From NCBI GenBank assembly GCA_028715175.1, contig JAQUSJ010000001.1, positions 148,356 through 212,355 of the forward strand: a stretch of DNA of 64,000 nucleotides. The letters are read 5' to 3'. Positions within the stretch are counted from its first letter, which is position 1, and every line of letters starts with the position of its first letter. The position numbers and the translations under genes were made by a program. This stretch comes from Candidatus Daviesbacteria bacterium. GTDB taxonomy: Bacteria > Patescibacteriota > Microgenomatia > Daviesbacterales > UBA10151. Below, piece by piece: positions 12,431-63,301 of the stretch. Under the pieces are notes generated by a model, which worked only from the letters and a program-made list of their open reading frames with translations, searched no databases and had not been told where the DNA came from.

Positions 12431-12808
12431 ATGAAGTATCTTGGAATAGATTTTGGAATGAAAAGAATAGGATTGGCAATTTCAGAAGGCGAGCTTGCTT
12501 CTCCGTGGCAGATTTTAGAAGTTAAAGGTTTCTCCGAGACGATAGAAAAAATTTCACAAATTATTGAAAATGGACAATTTCAAAAAATAATTGTAGGATT
12601 ACCTGAGGGGAAAATGGGGCAAAACGTGAGAGGCTTTGTTAAGGCTTTAAACAAAATGGGGATTGAGATAGAAACTATGGATGAAACGTTATCCAGCAAA
12701 AAGGCGCTGCAGGCTATGATTGAGCAAGGTATTGGTGTAAAAAAGCGCCGAAACGAAGATGCTTTTTCAGCTGCAGAAATTTTGCAGGATTATTTGGATA
12801 ATCTATGA
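12431..12808 (+). CDS. ruvX: Putative pre-16S rRNA nuclease / Holliday junction resolvase-like YqgF
   Basis: LGIDFGMKRIGLAISEGELASPW RNase H-fold start; 125 aa. Confidence 0.8.
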   Translation: MKYLGIDFGMKRIGLAISEGELASPWQILEVKGFSETIEKISQIIENGQFQKIIVGLPEGKMGQNVRGFVKALNKMGIEIETMDETLSSKKALQAMIEQGIGVKKRRNEDAFSAAEILQDYLDNL

Positions 12809-13785
12809 GAAAAAAAACCAATAATATAACTTTTATAATCATAATAACTTTTATAATTGTTATAGTGATTTGTGGTTGGTGGAATAGCCAGCTTGTTCCG
12901 GTTTCTTCTGATAAATCTACTAAAGTTTTTGTTATAGCTAAAGGAGTTGGTGTATCGGATATTGCAAAAAAGTTAAAAGAAGAAAATTTGATTAAATCCG
13001 AACTGGTTTTTAAGATTTATATTAAACAAAACAACTTCACTAATAAACTTCAAGCAGGTTCATATAAACTCTCTCCTTCAATGTCTGTACAAGAATTGGT
13101 AAAAAATTTACAAATCGGCAGTGAAGATGTCTGGGTTACGTTAATAGAAGGTTGGCGGCTTGAGGAAATGGCAGATAAGCTAAATGAGCAGTTAAAGATT
13201 GATAAGAAGCAGTTTCTAAAGAGTGCAAAAGAGGGTTATATGTTTCCTGATACATATCTTTTTCCCAAAGAAGCAACAGTAGAGTATGTAACTGATACTT
13301 TGAGAAAAACTTTTGATACTCGTTTAAACTCGGAACTGCGGTCTAAAATCCGTTCTCAGGGATTAACAGAAGAGCAGGGAGTAATTTTGGCGTCAATAGT
13401 TGAAAGAGAAGCCAGATCTGATAAAGCAAGGATGGAAGTTGCCAGTATTTTACTAAAAAGATTTAAGATCGGTATGGGGTTAAATGCTGATGCAACTGTA
13501 CAATATGCTTTGGTTCCAAAGGGATCAGAAAACGCGCCGGCTGACGGATGGTGGAAAAGAAATTTAACTAAAGATGATCTGAAGATAGATTCTCCGTATA
13601 ATACTTATTTGCATTCTGGTTTACCTCCAACCCCAATTTGCAATCCCGGACTTGCATCTTTACAAGCCGTTGCCAATGTCGACCCTTCGACTCCTTATCT
13701 TTATTATTATCATGATTCAAAAGGGGTATCCCATTATGCTAAAACTTTGGAAGAACACAATCAAAACGTAGTCAATTATCCATAA
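12805..13785 (+). CDS. mltG: Endolytic murein transglycosylase MltG (YceG)
   Basis: N-terminal TM helix, YceG-like domain, LPPTPICNPG motif; conserved ruvX-mltG adjacency. Confidence 0.8.
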   Translation: MRKKTNNITFIIIITFIIVIVICGWWNSQLVPVSSDKSTKVFVIAKGVGVSDIAKKLKEENLIKSELVFKIYIKQNNFTNKLQAGSYKLSPSMSVQELVKNLQIGSEDVWVTLIEGWRLEEMADKLNEQLKIDKKQFLKSAKEGYMFPDTYLFPKEATVEYVTDTLRKTFDTRLNSELRSKIRSQGLTEEQGVILASIVEREARSDKARMEVASILLKRFKIGMGLNADATVQYALVPKGSENAPADGWWKRNLTKDDLKIDSPYNTYLHSGLPPTPICNPGLASLQAVANVDPSTPYLYYYHDSKGVSHYAKTLEEHNQNVVNYP

Positions 13786-13833
13786 ATACTTTTTCTTCAT
13801 GCTTTTGGCCGCAAAAGCGCGGGAAAACTCTTT

Positions 13834-14220
13834 TTGTTATACTCAGCAATACTTATGTATAAGTTTTGGGGGAAGATTAAAAAACATAATCAAAGAGGAA
13901 AAAAATTGGGGTTTCCAACAGCTAATATAAATCTTAAAAAAAATATTCCGGAAGGGATTTTCATTTCCAGAACTAAAATTAAAAATAAATTTTATCCTTC
14001 ACTTACCTTTATTGGAATAGCCAAAACTTTTAATGAAAAAAGATTCCACGCTGAAACCTATATTTTGGATTTTGATCAAGATATTTATGGCAAATGGATT
14101 TCTGTAAAACTTTTAAAAAAGATCAGGAATAATAAAAAATTTAATTCTACTAAAGAGCTAATTGTTCAAATAAAAAAAGATACACAAGAAGCTAAGAAAT
14201 ATTTTAGTGAAATTCTTTAA
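13834..14220 (+). CDS. Riboflavin kinase (RibF C-terminal-type monofunctional)
   Basis: GKKLGFPTANI..., YILDFDQDIYG riboflavin kinase motifs; start may be the Met 8 residues in. Confidence 0.65.
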   Translation: MLYSAILMYKFWGKIKKHNQRGKKLGFPTANINLKKNIPEGIFISRTKIKNKFYPSLTFIGIAKTFNEKRFHAETYILDFDQDIYGKWISVKLLKKIRNNKKFNSTKELIVQIKKDTQEAKKYFSEIL

Positions 14221-18100: not shown

Positions 18101-18520
18101 GCTCAAATGGGGGGCCAGCGGTTGGGAGAGATGGAAGTTTGGGCTTTGGAAGCATATGGAGCGGCCAATATTCTGCAGGAAATGTTGACTATCAAATCTG
18201 ATGACGTTGTTGGAAGAGCTAAGGCTTTTGAAGCAATTGTTAAGGGAATTGATATACCGCAGGCTTTAATCCCTGAATCTTTCAAGGTATTGGTAAAAGA
18301 GCTCCAAGCTTTAGGTTTATCTGTTGAAACGCTTGGAGCAAAAATAGTCCAGGCGGAGGAGTTGGAAGAAAAACCGGAAGTAGTAGAGGAAGTAGCCGAG
18401 CTTCAGGAAGCGCTCGGAATGCAGCCAACTGCCACCCAGGGAGAACTTGAGGCAGAGGGAAGTCCTTTTGAAGTTGTAGATGCAGGTTCTGAAGTTGAAA
18501 AAGAAAAGGAGGAATCATAG
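15149..18520 (+). CDS. rpoB: DNA-directed RNA polymerase subunit beta
   Basis: Start moved to MSLNLSNTKIYERKYF (matches the RpoB N-terminus); full-length RpoB motifs throughout. Confidence 0.95.
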   Translation: MSLNLSNTKIYERKYFSKAPSIVPELNLIQIQLDSYRWFMQTGIREVLKEISPVEDFTGKNWTLELGSFYFGKPKYASEEASLKGVTYDAPLKIEAILINKQTGQRYKQEVFLGDVPQMTEKGTFIINGVERVIINQLVRSPGVFFQASDDPITGKRLFSAEIRPYRGSWLEFSITRGGVLTAKIDRRRKFAATTLLRALGFSDNESIIAQFTDVDTGEDKFIDTTLAKDPTTNTEEALLEIFRKMRPGDPVVLDNAKALLDGMFFNARRYNLIKVGRYKINKRLNLNLPNVPENWVLTKEDIIATLKYLMKLNYGEGKLDDIDHLANRRVRCAGELVQQNAFRIGVLRLERIIKERMSLTAADQEVSPGSLINAKPVIAAINEFFRSSQLSSILDQVNPLSELDHLRRLSVMGSGGITRDRASFSVRDINHSQYGRIDPIRSPEGQNIGLVTYLALYARINEYGFLETPYRKVVMQKGKPRVTNEIIYFTADDEENYHITEATVNLDENGYILDERVPTRFQGSFYEGFAKDISFIDISPQQIFGTSASLIPFLANDDANRALMGTQMQCQAVPLLRPSAPIVGTGMERIVADNMGRVIRAPEDGVIKYVDGKKLILKTKKQEISFEIKKFVHSPQGTCYSQRPVVNVGNKVAKGDLLIDGAACENGELALGQNLLIAYMSFEGLGYEDAIVISDRLVKEDTLTSIHIEEYEVDVVETKLGPEELTNDIPNVSEEALVNLDEKGIVRIGAEVGPNDIIIGKVQPKGETELTAEERLLRAIFGEKAKEVRDTSLRIPHGERGTVIGVQILSRDEGDELDTGTLMRIKVKVAQLRKVTAGDKLAGRHGNKGVISKIVPVADMPHLADGTAIDIIISPLSVLSRMNLGQLLETHWGFAAQKLGHKIAAPVFEKIPEEKLIEALQKAGYPTDGKVQLFDGRTGEPFGNKIVVGRNYILKLIHMVEEKIHARSTGPYSLVTQQPLGGKAQMGGQRLGEMEVWALEAYGAANILQEMLTIKSDDVVGRAKAFEAIVKGIDIPQALIPESFKVLVKELQALGLSVETLGAKIVQAEELEEKPEVVEEVAELQEALGMQPTATQGELEAEGSPFEVVDAGSEVEKEKEES

Positions 18521-18597
18521 CTATCAGTCTTCAGCTATCAGCTATCAGACAAAAACAAAAAGTCTGACGACTGACAGCGAAGCGATACTGAAAGCTG

Positions 18598-21500
18598 ATG
18601 ACTATTATGAATGATTTACTAGATTTTGAAAGCTTAAGGTTAACAGTTGCTTCTCCTGAACAAATCCGCAGCTGGTCTTTTGGCGAGGTCACAAAACCTG
18701 AGACCATTAATTATAGAACCTTAAAAGCAGAGAAAGATGGTTTGTTTTCCGAGAATATATTTGGTCCGACCAAAGATTATGAATGTTACTGCGGTAAGTA
18801 CAAAAGAATTAGGTTTAGAGGCGTAATTTGTGATAAATGCGGAGTTGAGGTAACACAGAGCAAAGTAAGACGGGAAAGAATGGGTCATATCAATCTTGCC
18901 TCGCCTGTTGCCCATTCCTGGTTTGTTAAAGGAGCGCCCTCAAAATTGTCGCTAATTTTGGATATTTCGCCTAAAAATTTGGAAGCAGTTATATATTTCG
19001 CCTCTTATTTAGTAATAAATATTGATCCTGTTGGTAAAGCAGCAGCATTGGAGAAATTAGATAAGGATTTGCTGGCAAAGATTGCCGAAGCAGAAGAAAA
19101 ATTGGAAGCTAGCATTAAAGATGCTGAAAGCTCTTTGAAAAAAGCCGTTGCCGATCTAAAGAAAAAGTTAGAGAAAGAAAAATTTGAACTAGAAGCAGAG
19201 GAACTGGAGTTGAAAAGCCGCGCAGAGATTCAAAAATTAAGAGATAATTTGGTAGTAGAAACCGGACAGCTGGAAGGAATCTTCAAGGCAGTATCTGATT
19301 TGGTGAAAAGTGTTGCCTCCTTAAAACTACTATCGGAGGAAGAATATTTTAAACTTTCCGAATATGGGGTCTCGAATTTTGTTGAGGTCGGAATGGGAGC
19401 AGAAGCATTTTTGGAAGTTTTGGAAAAATTAGATTTAGATAAAACTTCTTCGCATCTGCGCGAAGAAGTTAGAAAATCTACCGGACAAAAACATATAAAG
19501 GCTACTAAAAGACTTCGCATAATTGAAGGCATGCGATCATCCGGTATTTCCCCTGCATGGTTGATTATGAGAGTACTGCCGGTTTTACCTCCGGATCTCC
19601 GTCCCATGGTACAACTTCCCGGCGGGAGATTCGCAACGTCCGATTTAAACGACTTGTATAGAAGAGTTATAAATAGAAATAATCGATTAAACAGGTTGAT
19701 TAATCTTGGCGCTCCGGAAATAATCTTGCGGAATGAAAAAAGAATGCTTCAGGAAGCTGTGGACAGTCTGATTGATGCGACATCCCGTACTTCAAGACGG
19801 GGAGGTCCTGCTACCACTCATGTGCTCCGTTCACTTTCAGACATGTTGCGGGGCAAACAGGGAAGATTTAGACAGAATTTACTCGGTAAAAGAGTTGATT
19901 ATTCAGGAAGATCGGTTATTGTTGTTGGGCCAAAACTTAAGCTAGATCAAGTCGGTTTACCAAAAGAGATGGCTTTAGAGATGTTTAAACCTTTTGTTTT
20001 GCGTGAGATGATAGCCCGCGGTTTAGCTTCTAATGTTAAGGGTGCAAAAAATGTTTTAGAACTTAGACCTAGTGAGGTTTGGGATATTTTGGAGGAAATT
20101 ATCACCGGACACCCTATTTTAATCAACAGAGCCCCCACTTTACACAGATTAGGTATACAAGCTTTTTACCCGGTATTGGTAGATGGTAATGCAATTGCTA
20201 TTCACCCTTGCATCTGCGCAGGATTTAATGCTGATTTTGATGGTGACCAAATGGCAGTTCATGTACCTTTGTCATCTAAAGCTCAAGAGGAAGCTCGGAG
20301 ATTAATGATGGCTAAGGAGAATATTTTCGGTCCGGCTAATGCTCAGCCAATCACGGTTCCGAATCGGGAAATGGCTTTAGGGTGTTACTATTTAACTTTT
20401 ATCGATGAGTCTGAAAGTTCGAAAGATTTACAATTTTTTGCACTTGCGGAAGATGCCGTCAGGGCTTTTACTTTGGGAAAGATCGGTGTCCAACAAAAGA
20501 TTCAGATAAGAGTAAACAACGAAATCATTGAGACATCGGTTGGGAGGATTTTATTTAACCAGGTATTGCCTCCTCAAATGAGATTCCTGAACTCTGTTAT
20601 CAAAGGATTTACGATCCGTGACATTATCCTCAAAGCTATGGAAATTTTAGGTAAAGATGAAACAACTAAGCTGATTGATAATATCAAAGATATTGGTTTT
20701 TGGGGAGTGACAATTGCAGGTATTTCAATATCAATATTTGATGCAAAGATTGTTCCTGACAAGAATAAATATTTAGAGAGGGCAATCAAAGAGATTGAAA
20801 CAATCGAAGCGAATACTGCTAAAGGTTTAATTACCCCGCAAGAAAAATCACAGCTTTCTCAAATGGTTTGGATCAAAACAACAGAAGAATTGGCCAATGC
20901 TACATGGGAACATTTGGGTTTTAAAAACCCTATCAGAATGATGGTTGAGGCAGGAGCCAGAGGATCCAGAGATCAGGCAAAACAATTGTCCGCCATGCGT
21001 GGTCTCTCAACCGATCCAACCGGTAAAATTGTTGAATTACCTACCAAATCAAACTACAGGCAAGGCTTATCGGTATTTGAATACTTTACATCAGCTCGGG
21101 GAGCAAGAAAAGGTGTGGCAGATAAAGCACTAAAAACTGCAGATGCAGGATACTTAACCAGGAGACTAGTGGATGTTGCTCACGATGTCATTATCAGGAT
21201 GGAAGATTGCGGAACATCCAGTGCGCTTGAATATGATCTAACCAAAAATAGCTTCAATATAGCAAGAGAGAAATTGCTTGGTAGATTAATCTCGGAAAAT
21301 GTTTTGGAACCGAAAACCAGAAAAGTAATTATCAAAAAAGGTACAATATTGACTGAAGATATAATTTCAAAAATACTGAAAGCAGGAGTTGTAAAAGTAT
21401 CGGCCCGGTCTCCCTTAACTTGCGAGGCCCGTGTCGGAATTTGTAGCGCTTGTTATGGATTTGATTTAACTACCAGAGAGTTGGTTAAAATTGGTACTCC

Positions 21501-22304: not shown

Positions 22305-22775
22305 ATGCCAACTATTAATCAATTAGTTAGAAAAGGTAGAAAAAAGATCGTTAAAAAGATTAAAGCTACGGCTTTAAGACGTAGTTTTAATGCCAAAGAC
22401 AGGAGATATACCCAAGATTTCAGCCCGCAAAAACGGGGAGTTGTTACTTTGGTTAAAACTATGACTCCAAAAAAACCAAACTCAGCACTCAGAAAAGTGG
22501 CCAGAGTAAGACTTTCCAACAGAACTGAGGTGACGGCATATATTCAAGGTGAAGGTCACTCGTTAGCAGAACACGGAATTGTGCTAGTCCGGGGCGGCAG
22601 GGTGAAGGATTTGCCGGGAGTGAAATACCATTTAGTCAGAGGTAAGTTCGATCTGGTAGGAGTAGTAGGTAGAAAACAAGGTAGATCAAGATACGGTACA
22701 AAAAGCGGAGGAGGCGGACCGGTGCCCAGAGCGGCTGCGCCTCCGCCAGCTGGCGGACCAACTCCAGCAGTATGA
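22305..22775 (+). CDS. rpsL: 30S ribosomal protein S12 with an unusual GC-rich 24-aa C-terminal extension
   Basis: [11 protein letters not shown]...KYHLVRG S12 core; tail [23 protein letters not shown]. Confidence 0.9.
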
Positions 22776-22792
22776 AAGAAAGGAATTAAAAC

Positions 22793-23269
22793 GTGAGAAG
22801 CGGAAAAGCTGAAAAGAAAATACTCCCACCGGATCCTATTTACGGGTCAAGGCTTGTGGCCCGATTTATTAATAAATTGATGATCAGCGGTAAAAGAACC
22901 GTTGCAGAAAAATTAGTTTATGAAGCTTTGGAGACAATAAGAGAACAAGTTAAGCAGGAACCGCTTTCTGTTTTTGAGAAAGCTATTTCTAATATTGCTC
23001 CAAAGATGGAGGTTCGACCCCGGCGAGTCGGTGGAGCTTCATACCAGGTGCCGGTTGAAGTCAGAGGCGACAGGAAAGAAGCTTTGGCAATCAGGTGGAT
23101 TTTAACCGGAGCAAGATCCAGGTCTAATAAAGAGTTTCATTCTTTCGATAAAAAATTAGCGGCAGAACTTATTGACGCTGCAAATAATACCGGTGCGGCA
23201 ATTAAAAAGAAAGATGATGTCCAAAAAGCCGCTGCAGCCAATCGTGCATTCAGTCACTTCCGTTGGTAA
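22793..23269 (+). CDS. rpsG: 30S ribosomal protein S7
   Basis: S7 family sequence; 158 aa. Confidence 0.9.
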   Translation: MRSGKAEKKILPPDPIYGSRLVARFINKLMISGKRTVAEKLVYEALETIREQVKQEPLSVFEKAISNIAPKMEVRPRRVGGASYQVPVEVRGDRKEALAIRWILTGARSRSNKEFHSFDKKLAAELIDAANNTGAAIKKKDDVQKAAAANRAFSHFRW

Positions 23270-28398: not shown

Positions 28399-28992
28399 AT
28401 GTCTAAATTTAAGGTTTTAGGATTTATTAATTGCCTTTTAGCAATTTTGCCTATTGTCGTTCGGTATCCTCTTAATTTAGTTTTCTTATTTTCATTAGGA
28501 CTAAATATTTATTTAGGATATAAATTACTTTGGGAACACTATGATCTAACAAAATTTAAACAATATTCAACTCTGACTTTCTTAACTGTTTTTTGGCTCA
28601 TTTGGGGTTTGATCGGATATATTTTTGCGTCAGGGTTTGTTTACCCAATAATCTCTCTTGTGCCAATTACTGGAATTTTTATCTTTATTAGGAAACTTTC
28701 GGTTAAACTGGCTTTACTTGTTTCCTTTGCTACATTTTTAATTGTTGTCCAAACGATAGCTTGGAGATTTGAAGAAGATTATTGCTGGAAGAAAGGGTAT
28801 GAAATGGCTGTAGGTAAACTAGGAACGATGGTTGTTCCTGGCCAAGAAGCTAAAAATTTATTCGGCAGTGATATTGATATTTCTGCATCTGGTTCTGCTG
28901 AAGTTGGTACAGCCGCATATTACCATTTTAAGTGTCATCAGGATTTTGATTTGGGTAGAGTACTGAGAGAAAAATATATCCCAAAGAAGTAA
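28399..28992 (+). CDS. Hypothetical polytopic membrane protein inserted between rpsJ and rplC
   Basis: Starts 2 nt after the rpsJ stop (coupled); 4-5 predicted TM helices; no family recognised. Confidence 0.5.
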   Translation: MSKFKVLGFINCLLAILPIVVRYPLNLVFLFSLGLNIYLGYKLLWEHYDLTKFKQYSTLTFLTVFWLIWGLIGYIFASGFVYPIISLVPITGIFIFIRKLSVKLALLVSFATFLIVVQTIAWRFEEDYCWKKGYEMAVGKLGTMVVPGQEAKNLFGSDIDISASGSAEVGTAAYYHFKCHQDFDLGRVLREKYIPKK

Positions 28993-29162
28993 ATATAAAT
29001 TCACCTCTCTTGCATTTAGCCTCGAGTTTGTGTTAGAATTTCCTTACATGATTAGGTCAGGTTAAATAATTTAACCTAAACTACGTTCATGTAAACTGAA
29101 CGTAGTAAAATTTCAGTAGATCGCGCGTCCTGAAACGATACGGCGAATCTAGCGAGATACTG

Positions 29163-29197
29163 AGTGAGCTTCGCCTAGGCGAACTCACTCTTTTTAG
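29163..29197 (+). terminator. Attenuator/terminator-like hairpin plus T tract 10 nt upstream of the rplC start
   Basis: gagtgagcttcgcc-tag-ggcgaactcactc (13-bp stem with one bulge) followed by ttttt. No room for a promoter before rplC, so it is probably a regulated read-through attenuator. Confidence 0.45.
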
Positions 29198-29207
29198 TGC
29201 AAAAATT

Positions 29208-29999
29208 ATGATAAGTACACTTTTAGGTATAAAAAAGGAAATGACGAGTGTTTATGATTCCCGCGGAAGAAGGGTGGGAGCTACCGTTGTACAAATTTCA
29301 CCTAATTTGGTGACTCAAATAAAAACTACCGATGGTAAAGATGGTTACAGCGCAGTCCAGCTAGGTTATGGAACCAAAAAATCAGTCAAAAAACCTCAGC
29401 TTGGACACGGGAAAAAAGCTGGAATTGAAACTCCGATTAGATGGTTTAGGGAAGTTAAAATCAAGGAAGAAAATCCCTCGACTACGCTCGGGACTATAGA
29501 GCCTGGAACAGAAATTAAACTGGACCAGGTTTTTTCAATAGGAGATGCAGTAAAAGCGACAGGTATTTCTAAAGGTAAAGGTTTTCAAGGTGGAGTGAGG
29601 CGTCACGGCTTTCATGGCGGACCAAAGACTCACGGTCAATCAGATAGGTTGCGAGCTCCGGGCGCAATTGGTTCAGGTACTACCCCGGGAAGAGTTTATA
29701 AGGGCAAAAAGATGGCAGGTCATATGGGTAGTAGCGGAGCAAGTACCAAGAATTTAGAAGTCGTAGGGTTAAATAAAAATGATAATTTATTGATTATTAA
29801 AGGCGCAATTCCGGGGCCGGTGAATAATTTAGTTTTAATTACAAAATTAGGAAGAGTAAAAGGTTACACTCCGCCACCGGAAGAAAAACCATCGGAAGAA
29901 GAATTAAGCGAAGAGAAGCAAGAATCAAGCAAAGAAACAGAAGAGCCAAAGACTGAAGAAGCAAAGGTGGAACAAAAAGGAGAAGAAAATGCCAGTTAA
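29208..29999 (+). CDS. rplC: 50S ribosomal protein L3 with an acidic C-terminal extension
   Basis: L3 core (GKGFQGGVRRHGF...). About 45-aa Glu/Lys/Ser-rich tail. Confidence 0.9.
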   Translation: MISTLLGIKKEMTSVYDSRGRRVGATVVQISPNLVTQIKTTDGKDGYSAVQLGYGTKKSVKKPQLGHGKKAGIETPIRWFREVKIKEENPSTTLGTIEPGTEIKLDQVFSIGDAVKATGISKGKGFQGGVRRHGFHGGPKTHGQSDRLRAPGAIGSGTTPGRVYKGKKMAGHMGSSGASTKNLEVVGLNKNDNLLIIKGAIPGPVNNLVLITKLGRVKGYTPPPEEKPSEEELSEEKQESSKETEEPKTEEAKVEQKGEENAS

Positions 30000-30780
30000 A
30001 AAAGTGATAAGTAAGAAGAGAAAAGTAACAAGTGACAAGAAACAAGTGACAAGAAAAAAAGCTGGAAGTGCTTCTCTATCTGTTCCAGTTTATTCTCTAG
30101 CTGGTAGAGTTGCTGGAACTTTGTCATTACCAAAGGAAATTTTTGGGGTTAAAGTTAATAAAACATTGCTGTCACAAGCAGCTAGAGTTTATTTAACAAA
30201 CAAGAAGACCTTATTAGGTTCTACCAAGACCCGGGGTGAGATTGAGGGTTCAACTGCCAAGATTTATAGGCAAAAAGGCACCGGCAGGGCTAGACACGGC
30301 GCTATCCGCGCGCCGATATTTGTCGGGGGCGGTATTACTTTTGGTCCCAAGTCCCGCAAGGTACGGCTGGATTTACCAAAGAAGATGAAAAAAGCAGCTT
30401 TATTGTCTGCTCTTTCAGCTAAGGCGGCTGATAAGAATGTAATAGGGTTAGCTGGAGTTGAAAAAGCATCAGGTAAGACAAAAGAGTTATCTAAAGTTTT
30501 AAATAAAATTACTGGAGAAAATAAAGGCATGAAAAGTGTTTTGATTGTGACTGAGGGAAAAGCAGATAATATGATTAGAGCGGTCAGGAATATTCCAGGG
30601 GTTAGTATTTTGTCTACAAATTTGATTAATGCTTACGAAGTTTTAAGACACGACTTATTAATTTTGAACAAAGAAGCGGTCAATGTCATTCTGGGGAGTA
30701 AAACGACACCAGAATCTGGTAAGAAAGATTCTGGACGCGCTCTGCTTGCCAGAATGACAAAGAAAGGGAAGAAAAAATGA
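29989..30780 (+). CDS. rplD: 50S ribosomal protein L4 with basic N- and C-terminal extensions
   Basis: L4 core (KGTGRARHGAIRAPIFVGGG); 263 aa. Confidence 0.85.
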   Translation: MPVKKVISKKRKVTSDKKQVTRKKAGSASLSVPVYSLAGRVAGTLSLPKEIFGVKVNKTLLSQAARVYLTNKKTLLGSTKTRGEIEGSTAKIYRQKGTGRARHGAIRAPIFVGGGITFGPKSRKVRLDLPKKMKKAALLSALSAKAADKNVIGLAGVEKASGKTKELSKVLNKITGENKGMKSVLIVTEGKADNMIRAVRNIPGVSILSTNLINAYEVLRHDLLILNKEAVNVILGSKTTPESGKKDSGRALLARMTKKGKKK

Positions 30781-31205
30781 TCATTTTAAAACGGCCAATT
30801 ATTTCTGAAAAATCAATGAAACTTGCCCAAAATGGTTTGTATACTTTTGAGGTTGACAGAGAGGCAACAAAGCCTTTAATTGCCAAAAAAATTTCCGAGA
30901 AATTTAATGTTAACTTTTTAAAAGTTAGAGTAATAAATATTAAAGGAAAGATGAAATCACAAAGAAAAGTTAGAAAAGTTTATCAAACCGGGGGATACAA
31001 AAAAGCTATAGTCCAGGTTAAAAAAGGAGATAAAATTGCTGTCTTTGAAACTCCTAAAGAAGAGGCTACAGTCACAACAGCTGAGGGCGAACCGATCAAA
31101 TTAAAAGAGAAAAAGGATATTTTAGGAAGGACCAAAGTAAAAGTAGAAAAAACCGCGGTTGGGGCAGCGCCTACAACGCAGAGAAAGGTAATAACAGGAA
31201 AGTGA
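30777..31205 (+). CDS. rplW: 50S ribosomal protein L23 with a C-terminal extension
   Basis: L23 core in the first about 95 aa; the tail is Lys/Glu/Thr-rich. Confidence 0.85.
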   Translation: MIILKRPIISEKSMKLAQNGLYTFEVDREATKPLIAKKISEKFNVNFLKVRVINIKGKMKSQRKVRKVYQTGGYKKAIVQVKKGDKIAVFETPKEEATVTTAEGEPIKLKEKKDILGRTKVKVEKTAVGAAPTTQRKVITGK

Positions 31206-31217
31206 CGAATGCAGTGA

Positions 31218-31288
31218 GTCATCCCTGCGAAGGCAGGGATTCACTTAACAGCATCAATTAATTGGATTCCCGCATCCGCGGGAATGAC
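31218..31288. repeat. Dual-hairpin palindromic repeat element, copy 2 (gtcatccctgcgaaggcagggattc ... ggattcccgcatccgcgggaatgac)
   Basis: Same architecture and GTCAT/ATGAC termini as 27984-28039. The spacer carries the shared aattaattgg motif. It creates the spurious MDSRIRGNDK N-terminus on the rplB ORF. Confidence 0.6.
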
Positions 31289-31303
31289 AAGAATGAGAAG
31301 ATT

Positions 31304-32056
31304 ATGGAAACAATAAAAAGCACAAAAAGATTAAAGGTTTTGTTAAAGAAACACTCAGGCCGCTCTGGTGGAGTGTTGACTGTCCGTGGTCAAGGCGGAA
31401 GACATAAGAGGTATTACAGGGGGATTGATTTTAGAAGGGATAAATTTGGAGTTTCGGGTGAAGTGATGGATATTGAATATGATCCGAATAGAAATGTAAA
31501 AATTGCCTTAATCAAATATACGGATGGAGAATACAGGTACATTTTGGCCCCAAAAGGGTTATCTGCGGGTGACAAAGTGATAGCCGGTGACAAAAGTGAA
31601 ATAAAAATTGGTAATGCGATGAAGTTACAAAATATAACGATCGGGACACTGATACATAATGTTGAACTTACTCCTGGTAAAGGCGGACAATTAGGTCGGA
31701 GTGCTGGAATGGCGTTACAACTTCTTGCCAAAGAAGGCGGTTTCGCTAATTTGAAGATGCCCTCAGGTGAGGTTAGGATGATCTCTCTGCAATCAATGGC
31801 TACGATTGGCACATTAGGCAACGAGGAAGTGAGACAGCGGGTATTGGGCAAAGCCGGCAGATCCCGCCATATGGGTATCAAACCAACTGTTCGCGGTGTG
31901 GCTCAAGATCCTGATTCTCACCCGCACGGCGGGGGAGAAGGAAGATCAGGAATTGGGCGAAAAAGCCCGATGACAAAATATGGCAAGATTGCTGTCGGTA
32001 AAACCAGAAATAGAAGAAAGCAAAGCAATAGATATATTTTGAAAAGGAGAAAATAA
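31304..32056 (+). CDS. rplB: 50S ribosomal protein L2
   Basis: Start moved to [12 protein letters not shown]2 motifs (GRNxxGxIT-like, HPHGGGEG). Confidence 0.9.
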
Positions 32057-40766: not shown

Positions 40767-40858
40767 TGGTCAGCAGTTTTAGGTTGTAAAATGAAGCTAA
40801 ATCTGATAAAATAAGGACCTGCCTCCCGCCTTTGGCGGGACGTAGTTAGTTTTAAATT

Positions 40859-46308: not shown

Positions 46309-46448
46309 CATCAAGAGTCTACGTTCATGTAAGCTGAACGTGGCGGCAACCGGAAAGTAATCGGTGCCAATCCCGATGTAATATCGGGAGATGTGGTCTT
46401 AAGTTTTAGGACAAACTTTATCTAGACCTCTCTTGATGAGAGGTTTTT
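46309..46448 (+). promoter_or_regulatory. Candidate SAM-I-like riboswitch with terminator expression platform in the metK leader (atypical: no P2 arm)
   Basis: P1 CAUCAAGAG...AGAUG; GGCAACC at 46345-46351; GGUGCCAAU at 46363-46371; P4 hairpin cccgauguaauaucggg. Terminator ccucucuugaugagagg plus UUUUU ends 2 nt before the metK ATG and is complementary to the P1 5' strand. Confidence 0.4.
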
Positions 46449-60894: not shown

Positions 60895-60967
60895 AAAAAT
60901 CCCACTTGTCCAGTTACACCGGATTTTGCGGGATTTTTCGAAATGGTGAACGTTCACCGATTTTTTA
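60895..60967. terminator. Convergent-gene terminator region: two hairpins (aaaatccc...gggatttt and ggtgaacgttcacc plus T tract)
   Basis: Lies between comM (+) and the small zinc-ribbon gene (-). T/A tracts flank the hairpins on both strands. Confidence 0.45.
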
Positions 60968-61121: not shown

Positions 61122-61436
61122 TCAAAAAAAATTTAAAGTAAGAACATTATTTTTTACAAGCAAAAATAAAATAACCTCTGCGCCTATTGTGCAGGATGCG
61201 AATAGTAGAATTTTGAGTAAATCCTGGTGCAGATAGGTAAGGTCGGTAGATGAGTTGGTAGTTGGTCCGCCAACTGGCGGATGGTAGTTGGTAGTATGGG
61301 TAGTTTTTTGTATTTCTTCTTCCCTTACTACATAATGCTTGCTACTTGCTACCAATTCACGACCATAAACTTGTCTGCGAAGTAATTGTAAGCGTTTTTC
61401 AAGATCTGATTGTTTCTTGCTTTGTTGAATAGTCAT
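61122..61436 (-). CDS. Doubtful ORF: possible small protein with N-terminal coiled coil and C-terminal hydrophobic segment
   Basis: The ORF exists, but its middle part is encoded by a GC-rich palindromic/direct-repeat region and there is no SD. Confidence 0.2.
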   Translation of the reverse strand: MTIQQSKKQSDLEKRLQLLRRQVYGRELVASSKHYVVREEEIQKTTHTTNYHPPVGGPTTNSSTDLTYLHQDLLKILLFASCTIGAEVILFLLVKNNVLTLNFF

Positions 61437-61564: not shown

Positions 61565-61594
61565 TTGACAAAATTTGTTAAGGTAAGGTATATT
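61565..61594 (+). promoter_or_regulatory. Sigma70-like promoter (TTGACA-18-TATATT) for the 61608 gene
   Basis: TTGACA at 61565-61570, TATATT at 61589-61594; very short leader. Confidence 0.4.
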
Positions 61595-61607: not shown

Positions 61608-62075
61608 ATGTATTCGGATTGGGTTGTTCCCGCAGCTGCGGGCGTTTTGTTGTTTTGGCTTGGAACTTTAAGTTTTTTAATCTGGAGACAGAATAAGTTT
61701 ATAACATCACTTTTTCCAAAATCAGGAGAAAGGGATATCAGGAAAAAATTTGAAGAGATCGTAAAAACGGTTGAGGGGTTTAAGAATGAATTATCTGATT
61801 TGGATGATAGGATTGAAGCAATAAGGCTTAAGGGGTTGCAACACGTACAAAGAGTGGAACTTTTACGCTTCAACCCTTATGACGAAACAGGAGGGAATAT
61901 AAGTTTTACGGCTTGTTTTTTGGATGATAAAGGATCGGGGATTGTGATAACAAGTTTACATGCGAGAAACGGAACCAGAGTATTTGGTAAAGAGATAGCT
62001 TCAGGAAAAAGCCTTAAATATGAGTTATCAAAAGAAGAAGAAGCGGTGATTAAAAAAGCAATGGAGAAGCAATGA
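61608..62075 (+). CDS. Hypothetical membrane-anchored protein
   Basis: TM helix VVPAAAGVLLFWLGTLSFLIW followed by a charged coiled region and a small globular domain. Confidence 0.5.
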   Translation: MYSDWVVPAAAGVLLFWLGTLSFLIWRQNKFITSLFPKSGERDIRKKFEEIVKTVEGFKNELSDLDDRIEAIRLKGLQHVQRVELLRFNPYDETGGNISFTACFLDDKGSGIVITSLHARNGTRVFGKEIASGKSLKYELSKEEEAVIKKAMEKQ

Positions 62076-63256
62076 AAAATATTCTAAACATATTCAATAG
62101 TTTAACAAATTTACAAAAAATTTTAAGTTTGATTATTTTGGGAGTTATAATATACGGCGGTTCGGCAAGCATTTCTTATTCTTTGTTTAGAGCAATTTCC
62201 CGTCCGGTTGTTCCCGGCAAACAGGCTGCAGCTCCTACACTTCCTTCTCCCGCATCTGCCTTTATTGAAGATCCGAATGAGCCTAAAACCGAAAGTTGTC
62301 CGCTAAACGGTAGGAAACACACCAAAAAAGCCAAAGATTTCTGGGACAAAAGGCGGCCTCTTGCCGTGATGGTTGAAAATCATACAGAAGCAAGACCTCA
62401 ATCAGGGCTATCTTCTGCTGATGTGGTGTATGAGGCAGTTGCCGAAGGCGGAATCACCAGGTTTATGGCGTTATATTATTGCAATCTCTCGGATATTCAA
62501 GTCGGACCTGTCAGGTCGGCAAGGACTTATTACCTGGATTGGTTAAGTGAATATGACGCGCTATATGCGCATGTCGGAGGAGCTAATACTCCTGGTCCGG
62601 CTGATGCGCTCGGGCAGATTATTAAGTTTGGAACTAAAGATTTAAACCAATTTAGTATAGGGTTCCCTGTTTTTTGGAGAGATTATCAAAGACTGGGTCA
62701 TTCGGTTGCGACAGAACACACAATGTATTCTACAACGGCTAAGCTTTGGGAAGTAGGCGCAAAAAGAGGCTGGACCGCTACCGATTCGGCAGGAGTGAGA
62801 TGGGACAAGAATTTTGTTCCCTGGAAATTTAAGGATGACAAAGGCGGAGGTGGAGCGACAAATATAAAGGTTAATTTTTGGGAATCCCAGCCAGGATATG
62901 ATGTTAACTGGATTTATGATGCAGCCACCAATTCTTACAAGAGGAAGAATGGCGGGTCTGATCATATGGATTTGGACAATAATATGCAGCTCTCTGCAAA
63001 AAATATCGTTGTCCAGTTTGAGAGAGAATCAAACGCTAATGATGGCTATCCCGGGAATGTTCATCTGCTGTATGGAACTGTTGGCAGCGGTAAAGCATTA
63101 GTCTTTCAGGATGGAAATGCAATAGAAGGTAAATGGATTAAAGCAAATCGTCTGGCCAGAACGAAATATATTGATCAAAGCGGTAAAGAGATACAATTTA
63201 ATGGAGGTCAAATTTGGATTCAAACTGTCCCGGAGGGATCAAAGGTAAGTTACTAA
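62072..63256 (+). CDS. DUF3048 (YerB-like) domain protein, membrane-anchored
   Basis: N-terminal TM helix; RPLAVMVENHTEARPQSGLSSADVVYEAVAEGGITRF matches the DUF3048 core. Confidence 0.6.
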   Translation: MKNILNIFNSLTNLQKILSLIILGVIIYGGSASISYSLFRAISRPVVPGKQAAAPTLPSPASAFIEDPNEPKTESCPLNGRKHTKKAKDFWDKRRPLAVMVENHTEARPQSGLSSADVVYEAVAEGGITRFMALYYCNLSDIQVGPVRSARTYYLDWLSEYDALYAHVGGANTPGPADALGQIIKFGTKDLNQFSIGFPVFWRDYQRLGHSVATEHTMYSTTAKLWEVGAKRGWTATDSAGVRWDKNFVPWKFKDDKGGGGATNIKVNFWESQPGYDVNWIYDAATNSYKRKNGGSDHMDLDNNMQLSAKNIVVQFERESNANDGYPGNVHLLYGTVGSGKALVFQDGNAIEGKWIKANRLARTKYIDQSGKEIQFNGGQIWIQTVPEGSKVSY

Positions 63257-63301
63257 CCAATCCGCCAGCCGGCGGACTTTCTGCCCGGAAAGGAGGTTAA
63301 A

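Follow-up and report, generated by a model that had tools for sequence, protein, structure and literature searches.

A 16-nt GC-rich palindrome that probably acts as a very small mobile repeat in Candidatus Daviesbacteria and other Microgenomates

We analysed a 64-kb stretch of DNA from Candidatus Daviesbacteria (contig JAQUSJ010000001.1 of assembly GCA_028715175.1; the whole stretch is hereafter the window) and a perfect 16-nt palindrome, TCCGCCAGCTGGCGGA, in the 3′ part of its rpsL gene, which encodes ribosomal protein S12. In comparisons of orthologous sites, what is gained at new positions is the palindrome itself. TCCGCC-AGCT-GGCGGA is probably a non-autonomous, GC-rich hairpin repeat of 16 nt that is mobile now, or was until recently, in Daviesbacteria and other Microgenomates. 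It is apparently a very small mobile palindromic repeat of a kind undescribed in the Candidate Phyla Radiation (CPR); neither the 16-mer nor a comparable phenomenon in Patescibacteria was found in the literature searched. The repeat would move by copy-and-paste, and would persist by the same process and not by selection on each copy, with no demonstrated benefit to the host. The copies in the window, and the features around copy 2, are as follows (L numbers denote the loci compared).

22742..22757, plus strand: copy 1, TCCGCCAGCTGGCGGA, in frame in the S12 tail; presumably an insertion
61266..61281, minus strand: copy 2, the near-copy TCCGCCAACTGGCGGA (mRNA sense TCCGCCAGTTGGCGGA); an insertion that replaces ACTA of the L235 empty allele
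63261..63276, plus strand: copy 3, TCCGCCAGCCGGCGGA, intergenic; an insertion relative to two relatives, replacing AA or AAA
13533..13548, plus strand: copy 4, decayed, CGCGCCGGCTGACGGA, in yceG/mltG; 12 of 16 positions kept, encoding N-A-P-A-D-G
61122..61436, minus strand: host gene of copy 2, encoding a conserved 104-aa protein
61249..61292, minus strand: tandem heptamer (ACCAACT)n, the background that received copy 2

Insertion was observed in five orthologous comparisons of filled and empty sites, comprising window copies 2 and 3 and three sites in relatives. Permissive whole-region alignment gave many spurious indels in non-homologous stretches, and clean cases alone were used. At the copy 3 site, the window reads CTAACCAA, then TCCGCCAGCCGGCGGA, then CTTTCTG, whereas L004 has only AA between ...CCAA and CTTCTG, and L005 only AAA between ...AGAA and CTTTCTG. 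This copy lies 5 nt past the stop codon of a DUF3048 gene (62072..63256) and 26 nt ahead of the next ATG (63302). At the copy 2 site, the filled alleles of the window and L236 carry TCCGCC(AGTT or GGCT)GGCGGA between ...CTACCA and CCAACTACC..., where the empty allele of L235 has ACTA between the same flanks. The encoded proteins are 104 aa long in the filled form and 100 aa in the empty form. In L236, the loop of the repeat is GGCT, the opposite orientation.

Copy 2 had been placed in a gene-poor region by an earlier note on this DNA, but it lies inside the conserved 104-aa gene of the minus strand. In every relative, an identical DUF5679 zinc-ribbon gene is directly preceded by a counterpart of 96-124 aa with conserved N and C termini, and 94 homologues of the protein were found; the open reading frame (ORF) is therefore a real gene. 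Its product is laid out as an N-terminal helix, a variable linker and a C-terminal transmembrane segment, and copy 2 encodes H-P-P-V-G-G in the hypervariable linker of this small membrane protein. As the same note had described, direct repeats of GGTAGTTGGT bracket copy 2 (61257-61266 and 61283-61292). Because the site is a pre-existing (ACCAACT)n array, these repeats are no target duplication. Copies 1 and 2 match over 25 nt on the minus strand of the copy 2 locus and share their reading frame, the codons being CCT CCG CCA GCT GGC GGA CCA ACT in copy 1 and CAT CCG CCA GTT GGC GGA CCA ACT in copy 2. The probability of codon identity at the six residues common to both is ~5e-4.

Further filled and empty alleles were found in two enzyme genes. 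In yceG, L154 carries TCCGCCAGCTGGCGGA between GAGGAAAA and TGGTGG, where L001 has GAGC and L162 has GAGT; the four residues are also missing in ~8 further relatives. The decayed copy 4 of the window occupies the same yceG site as this perfect copy, and the empty allele of L001 and L162 reads K-S. In an SDR/FabG-like gene (short-chain dehydrogenase/reductase) of Gottesmanbacteria, 65 of the 88 parsed homologues have a 253-aa empty form (N-[KT]-W-G-R-I-I-N) and ~21 have a 257-aa filled form (N-N-P-P-A-G-G-G-R-I-I-N). The two alleles are represented at the DNA level by L234 (empty) and L034 (filled).

Existing palindromes also receive the repeat. Just downstream of the DUF5679 gene, the window has an unoccupied hairpin, GGTG-AACG-TTCACC (60945..60958, minus strand), at a nested-palindrome hotspot (L004-L013). 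Eleven strains retain the outer stem, GGTG...TCACC, while the interior varies: the window and L007 have AACG, six strains have a TCCCCGAT...ATCGGGG palindrome, and the 16-mer is present in L012 (GGTG, TCCGCCAGCTGGCG-A, TTCACC) and L011 (TCCGC-AGTTGGCGGA), each of the latter with a 1-nt deletion. In L233, one copy is nested in another, TCCGCCA-TCCGCCAGCCGGCGGA-GCGGA; the central GCTG of the older copy has been replaced, and the second-frame reading is S-A-S-R-R.

At four of the sites, and again in the nested copy, 4 nt give way to 16 nt. The net gain of 12 nt means that reading frames survive. No target-site duplication was seen in any filled/empty case. The landing sites include spacers, an existing hairpin loop, tandem heptamers, an older copy of the repeat itself and protein-coding genes. 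The insertions that survive in coding sequence are in frame, are located in loops, linkers or tails and encode flexible peptides, PPAGG (frame 1) or SAS(W/R)R (frame 2); copy 3 and the copies of L031, L011 and L012 are non-coding.

Once present, copies decay by point mutations and 1-nt deletions. The series is NPPAGG, NPPEGG and NAPADG in yceG, and PPTGG, PPVGG, PPIGG, PQTGG and PPAHG in the SDR/FabG-like gene. The closest relative, GCA_028712705.1, is ~92-97% identical to the window in the majority of aligned blocks (85% near yceG and in parts of the ribosomal-protein cluster) and is without window copies 1, 2 and 3. It appears to hold a decayed frame-2 copy of its own in the gene for the CCA-adding enzyme (S-A-S-R-L, a 3-aa indel relative to L005). 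Gain without purifying selection on the DNA, followed by loss, is more readily explained by a selfish or neutral repeat than by a functional site. Separately, identity to the closest relative falls to 85% in the yceG region (12494-14205), as against 96-97% in the neighbouring rpoB/rpoC region, and the window allele resembles that of L152; together, these features suggest recombination between Daviesbacteria strains.

The earlier note had also suspected that the recurrence of the palindrome was not due to chance, and the additional copies bear this out. A pattern search of the window returned three matches to the 16-mer at ≤1 mismatch, where shuffles gave an expectation of 0.06 even at ≤3 mismatches. 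We further searched a background of 1.38 Mb of low-GC, mostly CPR DNA, made up largely of non-Daviesbacteria loci from S12-based scans of genome and metagenome contigs. At ≤2 errors, the 16-mer had 10 matches in this background, as compared with a mean of 0.45 and a maximum of 5 for 60 control palindromes matched in half composition. Outside the window, CCGCC-N4-GGCGG occurred at only four sites, of which three, on unrelated contigs, were the exact 16-mer, and in an unbiased hairpin census TCCGCC was the most recurrent GC-rich stem. The half-site TCCGCC alone was not enriched (45 observed, 34 expected), and a single word resembling an uptake signal was rejected on this ground. In other Microgenomates, the contexts of the 16-mer are yceG, the SDR/FabG-like gene, a fusA leader and the hairpin after the DUF5679 gene. 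The identical sequence is present in Daviesbacteria, Gottesmanbacteria and another Patescibacteria metagenome-assembled genome (MAG). An assembly or library artefact is unlikely because the 16-mer is found in independent assemblies from NCBI, ENA, JGI and Logan and because reading frames are preserved.

In L031 (14819-14860), fusA has a leader that carries the exact 16-mer 22 nt upstream of the gene. With TTCGGGCGGATTTTTTT coming next, the left arm of the 16-mer could pair with the adjacent GGCGGA or with a second GGCGGA followed by a T-run, an attenuator-like arrangement. A blind scan of viral contigs with a 17-mer gave 56 matches, all of them single and nearly all in GC-rich phage DNA, which we attribute to chance. 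A lone case in a viral contig of 35% GC from IMG/VR (L108:11077-11094) is an 18-nt perfect palindrome, GTCCGCCAGCTGGCGGAC, that would read C-P-P-A-G-G-Q in a 77-aa ORF.

The copy in rpsL lies in the following setting.

22305..22775, plus strand: rpsL, 156 aa
22701..22775, plus strand: S12 C-terminal tail, Ala/Pro/Gly-rich, 68% GC
22793..23269: rpsG

We confirmed both the perfect palindrome at 22742-22757 and a 7-bp inverted repeat in the tail, GGAGGCG (22710-22716) and CGCCTCC (22738-22744). The tail DNA is, as had been noticed, much richer in GC than its surroundings, with 0.68 in 22701-22775 as against 0.414 in the remainder of rpsL and 0.386 in the whole window. Copy 1 reads ccT CCG CCA GCT GGC GGA, encoding P-P-P-A-G-G. 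The tail had been regarded as unusual and its GC-rich DNA as a possible inserted element. We compared the window's own tail with those of the best 120 homologues (121 tails), in which S12 is 147-178 aa long and has an Ala/Pro/Gly-type tail in 120 of 120 cases. In these tails, a conserved proximal TKxGGGGPxPR is followed by a hypervariable distal stretch (Ala 33%, Pro 18%, Gly 16%), and Gly/Pro/Ala tails of S12 were seen in other Microgenomates as well. The enlarged ribosomal proteins of CPR bacteria are reported to include S12 (preprint). The nearest S12 homologues all carry the name Candidatus Daviesbacteria. Judged from the homologous sequences, an Ala/Pro/Gly tail is thus ordinary for S12 of this lineage. 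The idea of an inserted element accordingly holds for the 16-nt palindrome, with its five filled/empty sites, and not for the 24-aa tail module as a whole, which is lineage-wide.

By contrast with the tail, the palindrome is rare in S12. The peptide PP[AVTI]GG was found in 1 of the 120 homologous tails (P0054, from L003), and the palindrome is thus in 2 of 121. The S12 of L003 is 88% identical to that of the window, and its tail DNA is CTCCGCCAGCTGGTGGACCAGCTCC. In the closest relative, rpsL is the same as in the window up to ...GCGGCTGC, diverges from there to its end and has no palindrome. The tail of L157 reads GCT CCG CCA GCA GCA..., that is, the left half GCTCCGCCAGC alone and then ordinary sequence; at the place of the palindrome it differs from L003 (GCT CCG CCA GCT GGT GGA CCA) by 9 nt, not 12. 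The L157 sequence could reflect partial deletion of the right arm, or it could hint at an origin of the palindrome in the S12 tail by fold-back copying. Synonymous resampling of the tail peptide produced an 8-bp stem in 1.9% of trials, so that copy 1, taken alone, could be a by-product of coding. In the light of the other sites, we infer that the rpsL copy is an insertion into a disordered, hypervariable S12 tail that was already Ala/Pro/Gly-rich.

Palindromes of other families occur in S12 tails too. CCTGCC-NGTCC-GGCAGG is present in the tails of L230, L231 and L232, at two tail positions, and encodes PA[R/S]PAGG. The related CCTGCCTGCC-GGCAGGCAGG is found in the comM gene (L009:1554; SLPAGRQG) and in tuf-rpsJ spacers (L030:17000, L217:14874). 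The CCCGAT...ATCGGG family is represented by CCCGATTCAATCGGG in the S12 tail of L150 and by the TCCCCGAT...ATCGGGG inserts in the DUF5679 hairpin. The S12 tail would therefore tolerate and accumulate GC-rich palindromes of at least three families, as a recurrent landing pad or as their source. With respect to records, the 156-aa S12 of the window had no exact record in the protein collection and no 100% match among those listed. An exact look-up of the 104-aa protein encoded around copy 2 likewise gave nothing, but its homologues include one that is 100% identical, from a Daviesbacteria MAG, so that this neighbour of S12 is recorded; the deposited annotation of rpsL may use a different call.

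Other small palindromes behave in the same way as the 16-mer. One example is a 25-nt hairpin present twice in the window.

29081-29105: 25-nt hairpin CTACGTTCA-TGTAAAC-TGAACGTAG, in the spacer 28992-29208; an insertion relative to the closest relative
46319-46343: second copy of the 25-nt hairpin, with 2 differences, between pgm and metK

The first copy is a clean 29-nt insertion, in which TAAA plus the 25 nt stand between TTTAACC and TAAAATTTC, with a possible 4-nt duplication of TAAA.

How the 16-mer inserts can at present be framed only speculatively. As a DNA hairpin, it has a folding energy of -5.9 to -6.7 kcal/mol. The constant signature of 16 nt in and 4 nt out suggests that insertion would begin with a 4-bp staggered break at the target, the overhangs of which would be lost. 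The break might then capture a self-annealed palindromic duplex, or it might be repaired by template switching to another copy. Ten non-obvious ORFs of the window were all housekeeping genes; RecA and RecX are encoded in the window.

Several points weigh against a mobile repeat. The window contains no gene for an HUH endonuclease, a REP-associated tyrosine transposase (RAYT), another transposase, a recombinase or a reverse transcriptase among its ORFs, and a search for a longer parent insertion sequence (IS) or MITE (a miniature inverted-repeat transposable element) with TCCGCCAG... ends returned only chance pairs of 7-mers. Copies are sparse, at 3-4 in the 64-kb window and ~1 for every several hundred kb of the remaining CPR DNA that was sampled, so that the high-copy behaviour typical of repetitive extragenic palindromes (REPs) and small dispersed repeats is not supported; in this sampling, the genome itself is represented by the 64-kb window and the relatives form a patchwork. 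For a selfish repeat, it is unusual that distant Microgenomates lineages share an identical 16-mer, and a conserved protein that recognizes it could be the reason. The 4-nt-out rule at coding sites may in part be survivorship, with only in-frame events persisting, and copy 3, with its swap of 2-3 nt, falls outside the rule. Finally, no empty allele of the rpsL copy was found among the relatives' tails compared and, together with the left-half tail of L157, this means that copy 1 could be native to rpsL and even the birthplace of the 16-mer.

In an alternative explanation, no mobile element exists and the 16-mer is a recurrent mutational product, generated either by fold-back or template-switch synthesis from the S12 tail, with a native ...GCT CCG CCA GC... 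as left arm, or by microhomology-mediated copying from a conserved cellular template. The L157 tail, in which GCTCCGCCAGC is followed by ordinary sequence where L003 and the window have the full palindrome, suits this explanation, and Pro/Ala/Gly-coding DNA is intrinsically self-complementary, as the resampling illustrates. Microhomology between target and palindrome is present at some sites (for example, AGCTGGTGGA of the empty yceG against AGCTGGCGGA), RecA is present in the window, and neither a transposase nor a target duplication was seen. However, fold-back synthesis copies local sequence and cannot yield an identical 16-mer between unrelated flanks, and none of the loci showed a conserved template with the 16-mer. 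If the source were another copy of the repeat, ectopic copying would be copy-and-paste in operation, and the explanation would then differ mainly in origin and enzyme, with the same outcome. We consider it unlikely. The simpler proposal of coincidence, that the palindromes are by-products of encoding Pro-Pro-Ala-Gly-Gly with preferred codons, starts from the fact that CCN and GGN are reverse complements, such that PPAGG gives palindromes fairly often. It does not account for the several non-coding copies, for the codon identity of copies 1 and 2, for a frequency of the 16-mer far above that of control palindromes, or for PPAGG segments that are indels relative to orthologues. Pure coding coincidence is effectively refuted, and we assign it almost no weight.

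Functional explanations invoke either DNA or RNA. The palindrome might be recognized by a conserved DNA-binding protein that acts as a dimer, for example as a parS-like centromere, an operator or a nucleoid-protein site, and be kept by selection, with new sites arising by whatever mutation. With its invariant 6-bp arms and variable 4-bp centre (AGCT, AGTT, AGCC, GGCT), it is built like an operator of two half-sites and is as long as parS, and the same sequence in Daviesbacteria, Gottesmanbacteria and another Patescibacteria MAG would suit such a site. Several copies are near the ribosomal-protein and RNA-polymerase cluster, and copy 3 is 26 nt upstream of a gene without a Pfam match whose product may, from its sequence, bind DNA. 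Selection on a binding site is nevertheless difficult to reconcile with the absence of all of copies 1-3 from a ~92-97% identical relative, with the free decay of orthologous copies and with half-sites that are not enriched. The palindrome has no likeness to parS, and no canonical parS was found within 2 mismatches in the window. Most copies fall within loops encoded by unrelated genes, positions poorly suited to an operator, and insertion of the exact 16-mer would still require a copying mechanism. We therefore regard a binding site as improbable.

That the hairpin functions at the RNA level is very improbable, whether as a transcription terminator, as a site that stabilises mRNA or at which it is processed, or as the translational operator of S7 between rpsL and rpsG. 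The predicted RNA hairpin is stable, with a 6-bp GC stem and a tetraloop (about -10.8 to -10.9 kcal/mol in mRNA-sense orientation), and the loop is AGYY in mRNA sense in all asymmetric window copies; the GGCT loop of L236, in the opposite orientation, departs from this pattern. Pairing of the arms is kept in L152 after two substitutions (CCACC/GGTGG) and in L003 with a G-T pair. Gene-end or leader positions are occupied by copy 3, L011/L012 and L031, the last with a second GGCGGA and a T-run in an attenuator-like arrangement; no RNA role is obvious for the mid-gene copies in yceG, the SDR/FabG-like gene and the gene of the membrane protein. T-runs are missing after all window copies, the scan called none of them terminator-like, and Rfam gave no match. 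The earlier note had pointed to the rpsL-rpsG junction as a place for a str-operon regulator or RNA-structure site. That proposal fails for want of conservation, an Rfam match or a T-run: the rpsL copy is missing from the closest relative and from 119 of the 120 homologous tails, and the junction did not fold significantly better than shuffles (z = -1.9). In relatives, moreover, the rpsL stop codon overlaps the rpsG start (ATGA), which leaves no intercistronic operator. The junction of the window differs from theirs in one further respect: at 22772-22795, where the overlap of rpsL stop and rpsG ATG in relatives is GTATGAGAAG, it carries ~21 extra nt, AAGAAAGGAATTAAAACGTGA, which give a 17-nt rpsL-rpsG spacer, where AAAGGA resembles a Shine-Dalgarno sequence, and let rpsG start at GTG. 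S7 differs in its first codons as well, which encode RSGKAEKK in the window and RSKKAPKK in the relatives.

A mobile 16-nt hairpin repeat thus remains the reading that we favour. If it is correct, the streamlined, mobile-element-poor genomes of CPR bacteria hold active or recently active mobile DNA pared to a bare 16-nt hairpin, and essential genes (rpsL, mltG/yceG and the FabG-like reductase) have repeatedly been edited by four-residue loops. The repeat would be a countable marker of strain-level turnover in Microgenomates and would explain hypervariable, low-complexity tails and linkers of their proteins, while its mutational signature (16 nt in, 4 out, no duplication) would constrain the insertion mechanism. 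For annotation, GC-rich palindromes at gene ends in such genomes need not be terminators or operators. We also entertain a broader proposal, which is tentative and which we hold to be somewhat doubtful as a whole: that TCCGCCAGCTGGCGGA founds a class of ~16-25-nt mobile CPR palindromes, the smallest mobile DNA units described; that these would spread by 4-bp staggered breaks (4 nt lost or duplicated) through host machinery, with no dedicated transposase; that in-frame landings would feed new loop, linker and tail peptides; and that the S12 tail of Microgenomates would consist largely of translated, decayed palindromes.

Additional palindromes and repeats in the window were noted in passing. 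Between the ORFs 30777..31205 and 31262..32056, the stretch 31204-31290 has two GC-rich hairpins with 8-bp stems, ATCCCTGC-GAAG-GCAGGGAT and TTCCCGC-ATCC-GCGGGAA, and is not alignable with the closest relative. The rpoB-rpoC spacer (18514-18606) is ~77 nt longer than that of the closest relative and contains CTATCAG repeats and GTCTGACGACTGACAG. The most over-represented 8-mer of the window is CTGACGAC. The map-infA spacer has a TCCCGCC-TTT-GGCGGGA hairpin (40824-40840), and similar TCCCGCC-N3-GGCGGGA hairpins occur in L011 and L152; the one at L011:2131, at the edge of the locus, is suspected to be part of a structured RNA beside comM. A near-consensus sigma-70-type promoter (TTGACA-18-TATATT) lies at 61565-61594, just upstream of a DUF4446 gene. 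Within the first codons of that gene, the 14-nt palindrome CCCGCAGCTGCGGG (61629-61642) was considered as a family member and rejected, being conserved coding sequence of a transmembrane segment (VPAAAGV); together with a T-rich run, it scores as terminator-like.

Among known systems, the E. coli S7 translational operator lies in the rpsL-rpsG intercistronic region. Copy 1 resembles it in its position at the rpsL-rpsG junction but is strain-specific and inside translated sequence, and the two genes overlap in the Daviesbacteria relatives. Of the features of an intrinsic terminator, the hairpin is present, and the U-run is lacking after all window copies. As with parS, the element is a 16-bp perfect palindrome that has few copies, is shared by different lineages and can be located within coding sequence; unlike parS (TGTTNCACGTGAAACA), to which its sequence is unrelated, its sites arise by insertion, decay and are not kept in close relatives. 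The GC clusters of yeast mitochondria are organellar elements of 30-60 bp with target dinucleotide duplications that are occasionally in frame (var1). The CPR element shares with them the form of GC-rich palindromic modules in an AT-rich genome, at times in frame, and differs in being 16 nt long, in a bacterial genome and without target duplication.

Rickettsia palindromic elements insert into protein-coding genes, some of them essential, and are tolerated there because the frame is kept and the encoded peptides are surface or loop segments. The net +12 insertions in yceG, the SDR/FabG-like gene and the membrane-protein gene are similar in this respect. In-frame insertion has also been described for the QMITEs of Coxiella (PMC5896051). 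Whereas Rickettsia palindromic elements and MITEs are ~100-150 bp or longer, the CPR element is 16 nt and adds only 4 amino acids. MITEs have terminal inverted repeats, >50 bp inside and a target duplication; the 16-mer has no internal segment and no duplication, and no parent was found. REPs and REPINs are imperfect palindromes of 20-40 nt with a GTAG or CGTC tag that are extragenic, usually high-copy and mobilized by RAYT, an HUH protein of the Y1 type (PMC3116915, PMC3733652). The CPR repeat is like them in being a short, GC-rich palindromic hairpin that is dispersed, non-autonomous and without target duplication. It is unlike them in that it has no tag (the flanking bases vary: C, A, A, G, T ...), is mostly intragenic and is low in copy number; and where REPs have a RAYT gene nearby, no IS200-like Y1 HUH gene is among the ORFs of the window.

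The nearest described class is that of the small dispersed repeats of Nostocaceae. Those termed SDR4-6 are reportedly 21-27 nt long, abundant, mobile, nested and associated with heptamers. In the citing accounts, small dispersed repeats are reported only from Nostocaceae (Elhai et al. 2008 as cited in PMC3116915, PMC5861425). They differ from the CPR element, which is a sparse, perfect, GC-rich palindrome of 16 nt, in their length, abundance and sequence (families SDR1-8), and the CPR element has in addition the 16-in/4-out signature and is often translated in frame. What the two have in common is that they are very small, non-coding hairpin repeats with filled and empty sites, nesting and an association with heptamers, and that the mobility deduced for them involves no obvious transposase and no classical target duplication.

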